From a virus (lineage: Duplodnaviria > Heunggongvirae > Uroviricota > Caudoviricetes), in the IMG/VR virus record IMGVR_UViG_2778261572_000010: 15,374 nt of DNA, one strand, 5' to 3'. The position numbers and the translations under genes are program-made. Positions 5,870 to 9,602 of the stretch are shown here, piece after piece (the stretch's first letter is position 1; every line of letters starts with the position of its first letter). The notes beneath the pieces are model-generated. The model saw only the letters and a program-made list of their open reading frames with translations, made no database searches and had not been told where the DNA came from.

Positions 5870-6151
5870 CTCTTCCATGATGGGTTAACTATCTTGATTT
5901 AGTTAAAGAATTAATAATCACACTATAAACCTATGTGGACTAAGCATAGCCATTTACGAATGACTACCTTGAGGCCACATAACGAAAGCTGTAGATCATA
6001 TCAGCTAAATAATTCACATCTCTTCTCGATTATCATACACCTCGAAGATTTACCAAATTCGCTCTAATCGATGATAAAAGAGTTGAATTTGGTTAAAAAT
6101 TGATCAATTTTATTCTCTACATTGTATTGAATCATCCATGAGGTTTCGTGC

Positions 6152-7708
6152 ATGGCTAGAGAAAATGATAAAAATCATAAAGTTAGGGTCGCACAGTACT
6201 TGAGGATGTCTACCGACCATCAGCAATATTCTTTACATAATCAGTCCGAATATATCAAAGATTATGCTGAAAAGAACAATATGGAAATCGCTTATACCTA
6301 CGATGATGCAGGTAAGAGCGGAGTCAGTATCATAGGCCGGCATTCTTTGCAGCAGTTACTTAGTGATGTAGAACAAAAGAAAATAGATATACAGGCTGTA
6401 TTATTTTATGATGTGAGCCGTTTTGGTCGTTTTCAAAATAGTGATGAAGCTGCATATTATTCCTTTCTATTTGAGAGAAACGGTGTAGATCTTATATACT
6501 GTTCTGAACCTATTCCCACTAAAGATTTCCCTTTAGAGTCTTCTGTTATACTGAACATAAAAAGATCTAGTGCTGCATATCACAGCAGGAATTTATCAGA
6601 AAAGGTATTTATAGGGCAAGTAAATTTAATAAAGCTTGGTTATCATCAAGGCGGAATGGCTGGTTATGGGCTGAGACGTCTTTTAGTAGATGAAAATGGC
6701 ATAGCTAAAGAAATATTGGGCTTCCGCAAAAGAAAGAGTATTCAAACAGATAGGGTAATATTAATTCCTGGACCAAAAAATGAGATAAAAATTGTAAATA
6801 GCATCTATGATCTCTTTATAGATGATAACATGCCAGAATTCATTATTGCTGAGAGACTAAACGAACAGAATATACCTGCAGAAAATGGAACATTATGGAC
6901 TCGTGCAAAAATACATCAAATCTTAACAAATGAAAAATATATTGGAAATAACATATATAACAAAACCTCATCTAAACTAAAAAGTAGGCTTGTAAAAAAC
7001 CCAAAAAATGAATGGGTTAGATGCGACAAGGCATACAAACCCATTATTTCAAAGAAAAAATATAATAAAGCTCAAGAAATAATTCAGCTCCGATCCGTAC
7101 ATTTGACTAATGAAGAGCTTTTAGAAAAGCTAAAACAAAAATTAGAAACTAATGGAAAACTATCTGGCTTTATCATTGATGAAGATGATACAGGCCCTTC
7201 ATCTTCTGTTTACAGAACCCGATTTGGTGGTCTTTTAAGAGCATATACTTTGATTGGTTATAAGCCAGAACATGATTACAGCTATATCCAAATAAATGAA
7301 GCACTAAGATCATTTTACTCAGGCATAATTGAGGATTTTAAGGGGGGAATTATAAAAAGCAACTGCTATATAGACGAATATAAATATGCACCAATGCTTT
7401 ACATCAATGATGAGTTTTTAATTTCCGTCCTTATTACCAAATGCACACATATGAAATCGGGTAAACTTAGATGGAAAGTCCGGTTTGATAACTCACAGAA
7501 AGCAGACATAACAATTGTTATACGAATGGATTCACAAAATATTACACCACTTGATTTTTATATCATACCAAAGATTGAAAACGAATATAGTAAAATGTGC
7601 ATGACGGAAACAAACAACATTCGATTAGATCTCTATAGATTTGATAATCTGGATAAACTTCTACAAATTATTACTCGAATGAAAGTGAGGGAACTATATG
7701 CTGCCTGA
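6152..7708 (+). CDS. Large serine recombinase (resolvase/invertase-type N-terminal catalytic domain plus recombinase domain), 518 aa
   Basis: N-terminal serine-recombinase motifs: YLRMSTDHQ (catalytic Ser), DDAGKSG, and GRHSLQQLL...VLFYDVSRFGR. Long C-terminal extension typical of large serine recombinases. GAGG site 8 nt upstream of the ATG. Very AT-rich. Confidence 0.9.
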   Translation: MARENDKNHKVRVAQYLRMSTDHQQYSLHNQSEYIKDYAEKNNMEIAYTYDDAGKSGVSIIGRHSLQQLLSDVEQKKIDIQAVLFYDVSRFGRFQNSDEAAYYSFLFERNGVDLIYCSEPIPTKDFPLESSVILNIKRSSAAYHSRNLSEKVFIGQVNLIKLGYHQGGMAGYGLRRLLVDENGIAKEILGFRKRKSIQTDRVILIPGPKNEIKIVNSIYDLFIDDNMPEFIIAERLNEQNIPAENGTLWTRAKIHQILTNEKYIGNNIYNKTSSKLKSRLVKNPKNEWVRCDKAYKPIISKKKYNKAQEIIQLRSVHLTNEELLEKLKQKLETNGKLSGFIIDEDDTGPSSSVYRTRFGGLLRAYTLIGYKPEHDYSYIQINEALRSFYSGIIEDFKGGIIKSNCYIDEYKYAPMLYINDEFLISVLITKCTHMKSGKLRWKVRFDNSQKADITIVIRMDSQNITPLDFYIIPKIENEYSKMCMTETNNIRLDLYRFDNLDKLLQIITRMKVRELYAA

Positions 7709-8594
7709 ATCAAATGAATTCCCAATAATCCAAATTGAAATTGCCAAAATAAAATTTCTTAACCCGCGCACTAGAAATAAGGTAGTGCATGAAGAAATTA
7801 AGGAAAGCATAAAAAAAAGAGGATTAAGCAAGCCTATAAGCGTAAGAGCGATTGATGAAGACGACTTCAAATATGCTTTAATTTGTGGCCAAGGGAGAAT
7901 AGAGGCTCTCGTTGCATTAGGTGAGACCATTATTCCTGCAATTATAAGAGATGTATCAGAAGAAGATGCTTATGTTATGAGTTTGGTTGAAAACATTGCA
8001 AGGAGGAGACCACGTTCCAATGAGTTATTACAGATAATAAAAGATATGAAAAACAGAGGACTTTCAGACTCCGAAATAAGTGAGATTACTGGGTATTCAT
8101 CGAACTGGGTGAGCAGTATAAATATGCTTCTTGATAAGGGAGAGCATAAACTTCTCTCTGCAGTCGAACGGGGGAATTTGCCTCTGTATCTCGCAGTGCA
8201 ATTTGCAAGATGTGAAACTGAAGAAGCACAAGATATTCTTACCGAAGCATATGATAAAAAATTAATAAAAAGCCGAGACATTATAAAGATAAAACACATT
8301 CTAAATCAGCGAACAATTGGGAATAAAGGTGCAAAAGCAGCCGGGTTTTATTATCACAAACCATCAAAAAGAATGACTGCTGAGGAGTTAATTGAGCTTT
8401 ATGAAAATAGTATCGCTGAACATAAATCTGTTTATAACAACTCTAAATTTATTAAAACTAATTTGCTGATAGTAAATGAGATTTTTAACATCATAATGAT
8501 GAATAAAAGCTTTCAAAATATACTTGAACAAGAGAATCTATCAGAACTGCCATCTCAGATCCTCAATCCAATAAACAAAGAGGCATCAAAATGA
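7698..8594 (+). CDS. ParB-like N-terminal domain protein (ParB/Srx fold), 298 aa
   Basis: ParB-box-like segment KPISVRAIDEDDFKYALICGQGRIEALVALG with an Arg-rich ENIARRRPR. Overlaps the recombinase stop by 11 nt; GAGG site upstream. Confidence 0.75.
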   Translation: MLPESNEFPIIQIEIAKIKFLNPRTRNKVVHEEIKESIKKRGLSKPISVRAIDEDDFKYALICGQGRIEALVALGETIIPAIIRDVSEEDAYVMSLVENIARRRPRSNELLQIIKDMKNRGLSDSEISEITGYSSNWVSSINMLLDKGEHKLLSAVERGNLPLYLAVQFARCETEEAQDILTEAYDKKLIKSRDIIKIKHILNQRTIGNKGAKAAGFYYHKPSKRMTAEELIELYENSIAEHKSVYNNSKFIKTNLLIVNEIFNIIMMNKSFQNILEQENLSELPSQILNPINKEASK

Positions 8595-9487
8595 TTCAGA
8601 TACGTTTTGGCGACAATTTTATTTATTTAGAAACTAACAAGTTAATTCCCTCTAAGGAATTGTTAGAAAATGTAAAGCTAAGTCATAAATACCATCAAAT
8701 AGTTACCTCAATTGAAAGCTTAGGTATTATTGAACCAATAATAGTGTTCTATGACAAAGATAAAGATGCCATTAAGATACTCGATGGCCATTTGAGGGTT
8801 GAGGCTTTAAAAGATTTAGGCATAGAAAAAGCTCCATGTATACTTTCGAGCATAGATGATGCGTTCACTCCTAACAAACAAGTCAATCATATAAATGTAG
8901 TTGAAGAACATAGAATGATAATCAAGTCCTTAGCAAAAGTTTCAATTGAAAAACTTAGTGCTGCTTTGGGCATATCTATTGATGCTATAAAAGATAAAGC
9001 TAATGTGATGAACGGTATAGATCCAAGTGTGATTGCGAAACTTTCTGATAAACCAATACCTAAGGCTACATTTGATGTTTTGAGGAAAATGAAACCAATT
9101 CGTCAAATTGAAGCAGTCGGTACAATGATTAATTTTGATAATTATAGTAAAAAATTTGCAATGAGCATCTTGGATGCAACACCGGCATCGATGATAATAA
9201 ATAAAGGGAAAAACACTCCCTATAAAAAGGACATAAAAAAAACCATACTTCGTCTGGAACAGGAAATGGCAACAACTTCGGAAGAAACAAAAAAGCTTCA
9301 AACCGAGTATGGTTCAGATATGTTGAAATTCGTTATAATCCAGTCATATATTATTAAATTACTTGGTAACTCTAAAGTTCTTCATTGGTTCTTGGAAAAC
9401 GAGGTTGATTATCTTAATGAGTTAAAAAGAATTTCGAAAATAAATTCTTTAGATGATAAGACTCTTGCTGAAAACAGCCAGTCATAG
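8591..9487 (+). CDS. Second ParB-like N-terminal domain protein, 298 aa
   Basis: ParB-box-like IIEPIIVFYDKDKDAIKILDGHLRVEALKDLG. Start overlaps the upstream stop (ATGA at 8591-8594). Same length as its neighbour but diverged in sequence. Confidence 0.75.
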   Translation: MIQIRFGDNFIYLETNKLIPSKELLENVKLSHKYHQIVTSIESLGIIEPIIVFYDKDKDAIKILDGHLRVEALKDLGIEKAPCILSSIDDAFTPNKQVNHINVVEEHRMIIKSLAKVSIEKLSAALGISIDAIKDKANVMNGIDPSVIAKLSDKPIPKATFDVLRKMKPIRQIEAVGTMINFDNYSKKFAMSILDATPASMIINKGKNTPYKKDIKKTILRLEQEMATTSEETKKLQTEYGSDMLKFVIIQSYIIKLLGNSKVLHWFLENEVDYLNELKRISKINSLDDKTLAENSQS

Positions 9488-9602
9488 GTATGGTTTTATA
9501 TATCCGAAATAAACCATGAAGTATACTTACACAACCATAATGGCTTCTCTTAGATATTAGCATAAGTAGGCAGTATAAGCCGTAATCATTCGAACGGTTT
9601 AA

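Follow-up and report, generated by a model that had tools for sequence, protein, structure and literature searches.

SCCmec elements are small chromosomal cassettes that depend on large serine recombinases for their movement; each end is marked by a direct repeat of the integration site, 15-18 nucleotides (nt) in length. In the large serine integrases, a coiled-coil borne by a zinc ribbon controls synapsis and directionality. A serine recombinase encoded together with a ParB protein has been described from the ssrA islands of Dehalococcoides, where an integration module carries a CcrB-like serine recombinase of ~540 amino acids (aa), a gene with a ParBc domain and a conserved tRNA-like locus (PMC3146451). 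This module (DsiB/DsiA) has six genes, which include a second small recombinase, RecF-like and Mom-like genes, a gene for a large protein and one ParB of 210 aa (PMC3146451). The locus discussed here lies in a stretch of DNA of 15,374 nt, called the window (IMG/VR record IMGVR_UViG_2778261572_000010), and consists of three overlapping genes that encode a large serine recombinase and two ParB-like proteins that are paralogues of each other, for which the shorthand SR, ParB-A and ParB-B is used. The window is E. coli chromosome, and from position 4449 onward it is identical to the ssrA islands of several strains. The trio belongs to a genuine, widespread and uncharacterised unit, referred to below as the cassette, and no description of it was found in the full-text literature. 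The Dehalococcoides ssrA module is the nearest published parallel to this combination of recombinase, ParB and structured terminal element at ssrA. The reading that is tentatively preferred, at somewhat less than an even chance, is that the cassette is the recombination core of a small integrative element in which the ParB pair serves as accessory DNA-binding proteins, and that the E. coli copy is left-truncated and kept as fixed cargo under selection.

The three genes of the window are as follows.

6152-7708, plus strand: SR, 518 aa, Pfam Resolvase and Recombinase domains
7698-8594, plus strand: ParB-A, 298 aa, Pfam ParB_N and RepB, NCBIfam parB_part
8591-9487, plus strand: ParB-B, 298 aa, Pfam RepB (8e-23) with a weak ParB_N match

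SR and ParB-A overlap by 11 nt and ParB-A and ParB-B by 4 nt, and 6152-9487 is one operon, as a first-pass annotation of this DNA had proposed. That annotation placed the start at 5870, which is the base after the stop codon of the preceding integrase gene; the operon proper begins at 6152. Its estimate of 20-30% G+C was too low, since the measured G+C is 0.29-0.38 in 500-nt segments across 5751-9750, compared with 0.42-0.53 in the flanking genes. The low G+C runs on through an adjoining DUF6119 gene to ~11.2 kb.

For the survey of distant taxa, one genome per species was searched for SR relatives, and at least 584 stretches encode one; the SR family comprises 1348 clusters at 50% identity (E<1e-30). 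The best 80 of the at least 584 loci, at 44-48% identity, formed the synteny set, and 72 of them had enough DNA for the gene order to be checked. The first-pass annotation had made its proposal depend on the co-occurrence of the three genes in other genomes, and they stand together in 72 of 72 loci, in the order SR, ParB-A, ParB-B and with the same sizes (ParBs of ~298 aa) and overlaps. These loci span alpha-, beta-, gamma- and delta-proteobacteria, Planctomycetota, Bdellovibrionaceae and Myxococcales, and the arrangement is far beyond chance. A homologous small helix-turn-helix (HTH) gene lies divergently just upstream of SR in 51 loci, including Agrobacterium C58 and the Sphingobium plasmids. 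The canonical cassette consists of this divergent small HTH regulator, SR, ParB-A and ParB-B.

About half of the loci (34 of the surveyed set, to which three Sphingobium plasmids are added) carry an element of ~145 nt, R1, on the same strand as the cassette. It stands directly 3' of ParB-B in nearly all loci that have it. The core of R1 is GGTGGGGATGGCGGCGAACCCGCTCGGAGCCCACCA, and compensatory changes are found in 9 of 23 predicted pairs (model R1, alignment A3). Examples are:

L026:11371-11514, R1
L080:11391-11535, R1
L101:6763-6907, R1

No Rfam family matched R1 at E values up to 10, no tRNA or transfer-messenger RNA (tmRNA) was called in it, and its single-sequence fold is no better than those of shuffles. 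The R1 model has no match in the window or in the E. coli loci. On the other side of the cassette, a left-end motif of the form TGGCGGAGGGAG...CCAAC..TCTC was found in 12 loci, at ~630, ~1400 or ~3300 nt upstream of SR and always on the same strand. Its form recalls a minihelix on the reverse strand with CCA at its end. It is located at:

L074:7312-7364, left-end motif
L067:7330-7382, left-end motif
L016:7325-7376, left-end motif
L106:1-48, left-end motif
L052:2663-2708, left-end motif
and 7 more sites

Between this motif and SR lie a ParDE pair (when the motif is at -1400) or other genes, and the variable distance suggests fixed termini with variable cargo. A 3.6-kb insert between ParB-B and R1 in L074 was considered as well; a transposase of the IS type (DDE) is encoded in it, and it offers no information.

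The discreteness of the unit is seen in plasmids and metagenomes. The four-gene unit of the A. fabrum C58 plasmid pAt (L006:3044-6947, 3.9 kb) corresponds to the reverse complement of ~40439-44342 in NC_003064.2, with the ends CGCCTTGAAGGGAGTTGAACC / CACCTTGAGCGGAATCGAACC. It is 96.9% identical to the copy in pAt1D1460, and no homology was found between the two plasmids outside the unit, which thus stands in two unrelated contexts. A direct repeat of ~29 nt, of the form CGCCTTGAnnGGnnTnGAACC, is present at both ends of the Agrobacterium unit, and in plasmids that lack the unit but share a flank the repeat stands once at the corresponding position. The unoccupied sites with a single repeat and the positions of the repeat are:

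pAtCFBP5507a: single repeat after abiEii
A. vitis plasmid and Shinella pShin-12: single repeat after fic
L006:3045 and 6927, repeat
L107:6807, 41309 and 15218, repeat
L096:8045, repeat
L098:6636, repeat
L099:6636, repeat
L008:5320, repeat

The repeats of the Agrobacterium unit together with the single-copy sites are the signature of site-specific insertion. No plasmid in which both flanks of the Agrobacterium unit are joined was found. In a comparison of the Sphingobium plasmid units with a Novosphingobium unit, homology extends only from the HTH gene to the R1 end, and two metagenome contigs of 3981 and 4051 bp consist of exactly the HTH gene and the trio and break at the R1 start. Many other SR homologues are on contigs of 3.5-4.5 kb. 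More generally, the R1 start is a frequent breakpoint of contigs from metagenomes and isolates.

The ~29-nt repeat (CGCCTTGAACGGATTCGAACC...) resembles a tRNA T-arm, and copies of it are scattered over the intergenic DNA of Rhizobiaceae plasmids. It is often located just after toxin-type genes (abiEii, fic, relE), and it marks breakpoints between conserved and variable plasmid segments. The terminal repeat of the Agrobacterium unit was considered as a unique attachment (att) site, but this is weakened by further copies in pAtC58, which are discussed below.

SR has been characterized by domain calls with Pfam and NCBIfam and by structure comparison with a PDB profile search, an AlphaFold2 (AF2) model and Foldseek. 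A resolvase-type catalytic domain is present (PF00239, E=8e-22 over residues 14-152), and Y16 and the catalytic residues R18, S20, R90 and R93 are invariant in alignments of 52 and 71 sequences. It is followed by a PF07508 'Recombinase' domain (E=6e-22, residues 210-312), which aligns to residues 189-299 of SprA. The PDB profile matches are to TP901-1, SprA, TnpX and phiC31 and are confined to residues ~14-317. The AF2 model has a pLDDT (predicted local distance difference test) of 74, and its best Foldseek matches are complexes of SprA, Bxb1 and phiC31, with E values of 1e-14 to 1e-9. Judged by the sequence and the predicted fold of its first two domains, SR belongs with the integrase/transposase-type large serine recombinases. 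It shares with SprA/SPbeta, Bxb1, phiC31, TP901-1 and TnpX the catalytic domain with its Arg/Ser/Arg residues and the second domain. However, unlike the large serine integrases it has no PF13408 zinc ribbon by Pfam, no Cys cluster in 313-518 and no coiled-coil. Its ~200 C-terminal residues comprise instead a PF18780-like helical repeat and a beta-rich domain. The helical segment that follows the second domain matches PF18780 (HNH_repeat) in relatives, and the beta-rich domain predicted after these helices is not covered by any PDB match. Compared with the small resolvases (Tn3/Sin/ParA-RK2 type; ~180-220 aa with a C-terminal HTH), SR differs in its length of 518 aa and its integrase-type second domain, and no res-like repeat array was seen in the leader at 5870-6151. 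SR is always co-transcribed with two ParB paralogues, an arrangement that is not known from any studied large serine recombinase.

In P0179 (773 aa) and P0258 (774 aa) the recombinase is joined to a C-terminal region of the RepB type, and P0122/P0123 (1057 aa) are tandem recombinase-recombinase fusions; both kinds may be real or may be frameshift artefacts. The SR-RepB fusions would argue for a physical cooperation of SR and ParB.

How does the cassette compare with the two described systems? The likeness to SCCmec lies in the best NCBIfam match of SR, which is CcrB, and in the Agrobacterium units, which are bounded by ~29-nt direct repeats that are found as single copies at unoccupied sites. 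However, the scores are 65 bits for CcrB and 46 bits for CcrC against cut-offs of 900, and SR is not a Ccr. The cassette has one recombinase and SCCmec two (CcrA/CcrB), and the Agrobacterium repeat is dispersed and intergenic and is not a unique site in an essential gene. The Dehalococcoides module also differs, since the cassette has two ParB/Noc-type paralogues of 298 aa and a divergent HTH gene. In E. coli, ssrA is targeted by a tyrosine integrase, and the recombinases of the two systems are compared here by description.

The first-pass annotation described the second and third genes as two diverged ParB-fold proteins beside a large serine recombinase, and this description agrees with the Pfam domains and with a profile-profile comparison of the two families. 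ParB-A combines an N-terminal domain of the ParB/Noc/Spo0J/KorB type (CTPase fold) with an HTH and a C-terminal domain of the RepB type. The motifs NPRxRN, CGxGR and ENxARR are invariant in its family (alignment A5), and its PDB profile match is to Spo0J at 1.5e-17, with Noc and KorB also matched. In ParB-B the motifs DGHxR, T-x-N and E-H are invariant, ParB box III lacks EN (alignment A6), and the PDB profile match is to Noc at 1e-11. An hhalign comparison of A5 with A6 gave a probability of 97% over 245 columns, which makes ParB-A and ParB-B full-length paralogues. Both align with ParB/Spo0J, Noc and KorB across the N-terminal domain and the HTH. However, the complete CTP-binding motifs of ParB clamps are GERRxR and ENLQR, and the arginine patch GERRxR is GxGR in ParB-A and DGHxR in ParB-B, and it is uncertain whether either protein binds or hydrolyses cytidine triphosphate, because GERRxR is reduced in both and the EN of box III is missing from ParB-B. 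A further difference is that ParB-family clamps pair with ParA, whereas the ParBs of the cassette have no ParA and their partner is a recombinase. KorA is the small HTH partner of KorB, and the small HTH gene of the cassette recalls KorA.

In RefSeq both genes are labelled 'ParB/RepB/Spo0J family partition protein'. The cassette shares the Pfam RepB (PF07506) and ParB_N domains with repABC and type Ia ParABS systems but lacks an ATPase gene, and a repeated array of parS sites was not seen beside it. The score of the repABC RepB model is 38 bits, compared with a cut-off of 201. No ParA/RepA Walker ATPase was found in the window or among the recurrent neighbours in the 72 loci, and pAtC58 has a genuine repABC ~40 kb from its copy of the cassette. 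The cassette is not a partition system, because there is no ParA and the repABC RepB model is far below its cut-off. The label is an annotation problem, as the anatomy does not support it. It had also been claimed that the trio cannot be assigned to a characterised partition, transposition or defence system. This holds: ParA is lacking, models of defence systems gave no match to the cassette as such, and the literature offered no description.

Among 5426 complete E. coli genomes, the trio is present in 661, always on the chromosome and always behind a P4-type integrase. In 584 of the 661 it is a 90-95% identical allele, which is that of BL21-AI, Rosetta2(DE3) and C43(DE3). The entire island of the BL21 type consists of ssrA, the integrase, the trio and IS1, followed by core genes. 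SR is found at 98% identity in Enterobacter, Cronobacter, Salmonella, Klebsiella and Citrobacter, and in the Enterobacter, Cronobacter and Salmonella loci that were examined it follows the same integrase at a distance of 282 nt. Strain E14 carries the block from 5311 onward in an argW island, where the integrase is truncated. The ratio of nonsynonymous to synonymous divergence (dN/dS) between the two E. coli alleles is 0.12 for SR, 0.06 for ParB-A and 0.06 for ParB-B, and all three genes are under purifying selection. The dS between the window and the BL21 type is 0.64 for the integrase and 0.17-0.31 for the trio.

The surroundings of the operon in the window are as follows.

4452..4475, plus strand: att repeat, a 24-nt copy of the ssrA (tmRNA) 3' end, exact match to GTTCAACTCCCGCCAGCTCCACCA, start of the trio-bearing island
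4640..5869, plus strand: P4-type tyrosine integrase, 409 aa, Pfam Arm-DNA-bind_3, Phage_int_M and Phage_integrase, NCBIfam PRK09692 with 443 bits
5870..6151, plus strand: AT-rich operon leader of 282 nt between the integrase stop and the SR start
6096-6111: perfect 16-nt palindrome AAAATTGATCAATTTT, which contains GATC, 41 nt upstream of the SR start codon
9488..9535, plus strand: conserved 3' tail of the unit; the homology of the window type to the BL21 type stops at 9535
9560..9851, plus strand: remnant of a second P4-type integrase gene, with its last ~89 codons and ~24 nt; open reading frame (ORF) 9615-9827

The window matches genomes with ssrA directly upstream from 4449 onward, and positions 1-4448 are a separate integrated element in tandem ahead of the trio island. 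In Enterobacteriaceae the trio is always directly preceded by the P4-type integrase gene. The leader has no divergent HTH gene such as the canonical unit carries, since its minus strand has no ORF of more than 50 aa. The palindrome is a candidate operator or ParB site; it occurs once in the window, with no further copies at up to 3 mismatches. Scans of the window for sigma-70 promoters and terminators gave results that were not above expectation (that of shuffles for promoters). A hairpin in the 3' tail, ATGGTTTTAT...ATAAACCAT, is not significant (fold z-score -0.9), and the tail has no match to the R1 model.

If the preferred reading of the cassette as the core of a small integrative element is correct, the element would be of ~3.6-4 kb, sometimes cargo-bearing, and of the SCC or ssrA-island kind. 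From the anatomy, homology and synteny of the unit and its discreteness in relatives, we infer that SR would integrate and excise site-specifically at short sites that resemble tRNA 3' ends. The ParB paralogues would bind the DNA of the unit as accessory subunits. They may play a role in the architecture of the synapse, they may set directionality or target choice in place of the missing control by a zinc ribbon and coiled-coil, or they may act in repression together with the HTH protein. The unit of Enterobacteriaceae would have lost the HTH gene and a recognisable left end. P4-integrase islands at ssrA or argW would pass it on as their first cargo, kept intact by selection, and the E. coli copy would be fixed and possibly domesticated rather than demonstrably hopping.

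Several observations weigh against this reading. An excision or integration product has been observed nowhere. In pAtC58, 84 kb contain two strong and one weak further intergenic copies of the ~29-nt repeat, so that the repeat is a dispersed family and not a unique site; it could be a target, or a mere hotspot for other recombination. SR lacks the zinc-ribbon/coiled-coil domain that defines the handling of att sites in the studied large serine integrases. No empty site was found among the 5426 E. coli genomes, in which an artificial junction of the integrase end and the downstream sequence had no match at a cover of 80% or more; the DUF6119 side of this junction is apparently confined to E. 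coli genomes that carry the trio. Direct repeats on the two sides of the E. coli trio did not exceed chance as judged by shuffles, and no remnant of the HTH gene was found in 5500-6300 of the window by HTH-profile matches in six frames. Flanking-repeat candidates of the E. coli trio of the form 'CCwTGA' were post hoc and have been dropped. The E. coli trio is never apart from the P4-type integrase, and the mobility of the island is therefore already explained by that integrase. Finally, three conjugative plasmids of Sphingobium carry the unit at the same point of their backbone, next to DUF2493, ssb and ArdC-like genes, a placement that would equally suit a role in plasmid maintenance. The self-mobilising mini-element that was proposed in the first-pass annotation is thus supported by the relatives, with their 3.9-kb Agrobacterium units with terminal repeats and their unit-sized metagenome contigs, and not by the E. 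coli copy, which shows no empty site, no terminal repeats above chance and no HTH gene and always accompanies the integrase. Of the two functions originally proposed, the mini-element is the better supported, through relatives only.

The Sphingobium plasmids lead to a different explanation, in which the cassette is a maintenance or regulatory module. SR would resolve multimers or cointegrates at an adjacent site, and the ParB pair and the HTH protein would act in the manner of KorB/KorA or Noc and silence or position the element as spreading clamps. Both ParBs are true relatives of ParB, Noc and KorB with an HTH, the small divergent HTH gene in 51 loci invites the analogy with KorA and KorB, and each unit has one structured site. 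The purifying selection in E. coli, which comes with no signs of mobility, is also in keeping with such a function. The same is true of a Piscinibacter plasmid (L007:1-6876), in which the cassette follows directly on a 'transposase family protein' gene, TniB and TniQ. The position after TniB and TniQ is the serine resolvase slot of Tn5053/Tn402-type transposons. However, there is no ParA anywhere near the unit, and the enzyme has the integrase-type large architecture and not that of a small resolvase with a C-terminal HTH. It also speaks against such a module that the unit moves between unrelated contexts with sharp boundaries, and the cassette is common in chromosomal islands, which need no dimer resolution beyond Xer. 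This explanation is considered somewhat unlikely.

The integrase remnant downstream of the trio bears on the origin of the E. coli arrangement. Positions 5602-5893 and 9560-9851 form an imperfect direct repeat of 292 nt with 76% identity that brackets the trio. RefSeq annotates the remnant as 'integrase, incomplete', and the BL21 type does not have it. It has been considered that the trio was inserted into the integrase gene together with a surrogate integrase 3' end (5602-9559), which would have restored the reading frame and displaced the original end to 9560-9851. Besides the bracketing repeat, such an insertion would account for the identity between the window and the BL21 type, which is 70-93% in the 5' part of the integrase and 94-98% from ~5447, and for the dS of the integrase, which exceeds that of the trio. 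The junctions are not clean, however: between the unit and the remnant lie 24 nt of unrelated sequence (9536-9559), and the switch in identity at ~5447 does not coincide with the start of the repeat at 5602. The absence of the remnant from the BL21 type also speaks against it, as does the similarity of the two regions downstream of the integrases, which continues in patches to ~5955/9900. Most simply, the remnant is what is left of the integrase gene of a second island (DUF6119-Hxs) in tandem, after a deletion that removed the 5' part of this gene. A tandem island with a deletion and recombination inside the integrase gene is the simpler account of the 292-nt repeat and explains everything, and tandem elements at ssrA are directly seen both here and in loci of other genera. 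It is therefore very improbable that the trio was inserted into the integrase gene. Recurrent Logan contigs of 3980 bp were considered as a circular form of the unit; they span window positions 5743-9722 and end inside the 38-nt exact core of the repeat, and they are an assembly artefact.

The neighbourhood of the cassette is variable and is rich in toxin-antitoxin and defence genes, integrases and insertion sequence (IS) elements. Flanking genes in 66 loci include AbiE, MADS, Lamassu LmuB, PARIS AriA, IetA, AbiL, type IIG restriction-modification, McrBC and PDC candidates. The cassette of pAtC58 is within a stretch (14-47 kb) that contains Qat, an ATP-dependent endonuclease and helicase pair, a restriction enzyme, Fic and AbiE; the endonuclease and helicase pair is presumably Gabija-like. 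The first-pass annotation had placed the trio in a cargo position downstream of a P4-type integrase, which is correct in that the integrase ends 282 nt upstream and the slot is variable. In E. coli G3/10 (L097:5726-10367), the slot behind the ssrA integrase holds, in place of the trio, a gene for a 1215-aa AAA-domain protein followed by one for a phospholipase-D-like (PLD) protein. This AAA and PLD pair is an apparent candidate for a two-gene defence pair.

These neighbours raise the possibility that the cassette functions in defence against, or exclusion of, phages or plasmids, as had also been suggested in the first-pass annotation. In such a system the ParB-fold proteins would recognise incoming DNA or load onto it, and the recombinase, as the effector, would break or rearrange it. 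A defence role agrees with the AAA and PLD pair in the same post-integrase cargo slot, with the defence genes that flank the cassette in 66 loci, with the position of the pAtC58 unit inside a stretch with Qat, Fic and AbiE, and with the selective retention of the E. coli genes, which bear no marks of mobility. However, a search with PADLOC-DB v2.0.0 gave no match for SR, and the matches of the ParBs were confined to the ParB_N portion of methyltransferase models. No domain that would indicate a toxic or nuclease effector was detected in the cassette, and full-text searches gave no paper that describes it. Recombinases and mobile elements also gather in such islands, so the neighbourhood does not discriminate. 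Of the earlier suggestion the neighbourhood alone was borne out and a PADLOC match was not obtained; a defence function is considered unlikely.

A bolder form of the preferred integrative-element reading has also been considered. Here a large serine recombinase that lacks the zinc ribbon and coiled-coil would be steered by ParB-type nucleotide-switch clamps, and R1, with a 3' half that resembles a tRNA minihelix, would be the site or an RNA or single-stranded DNA cofactor. Such a machine would capture small cargo such as toxin-antitoxin and defence genes, carry it from one tRNA-like repeat to another on plasmids and in islands, and represent a new class of site-specific recombination machine. 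In this full form the proposal is decidedly doubtful. If the element reading is true, the cassette represents a very common and unstudied family of serine-recombinase elements, with at least 584 loci in species-representative genomes and 1348 clusters. The ParB-fold proteins would then replace the logic of the coiled-coil and of the recombination directionality factor (RDF) of phage integrases, which would be a new accessory principle. This would bear on the spread of small modules through defence islands and plasmids and on recombinase engineering. Intact copies in strains derived from BL21/BL21(DE3) and in A. fabrum C58 make an accessible model.

The sole match in a phage database is L100 (MT837206.1, 7458 bp, 'Bacteriophage sp.', human gut), which contains a low-G+C copy of the cassette. 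It has a divergent winged-HTH gene, and a calcineurin-like phosphoesterase gene abuts ParB-B. Bxb1 has an excision factor, gp47, of the same calcineurin-like phosphoesterase superfamily. A phage origin of the cassette was set aside, as this one unverified gut 'phage' contig of 7.5 kb is all that would point to it.

The window also contains genes on either side of the trio island. The element at 1-4475 has an SPFH-family gene and a tyrosine integrase of 399 aa at 3117-4316, and the 24-nt ssrA repeat divides it from the island. In the Enterobacter and Cronobacter loci that were examined, the slot of this upstream element is occupied by a P2/186-like prophage. Downstream, at 9984-15010, a TIGR04141/DUF6119 gene (535 aa, 521 bits) adjoins a complete His-Xaa-Ser system (hxsA, hxsC, hxsB, hxsD). 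TIGR04141 and DUF6119 receive passing mentions in unrelated studies, and full-text searches gave no description of DUF6119. Only 61 E. coli genomes match the DUF6119 gene at a cover of at least 80%, and in these it apparently always adjoins the trio. The DUF6119-Hxs block is also located downstream of the trio in the Cronobacter and Salmonella loci that were examined.

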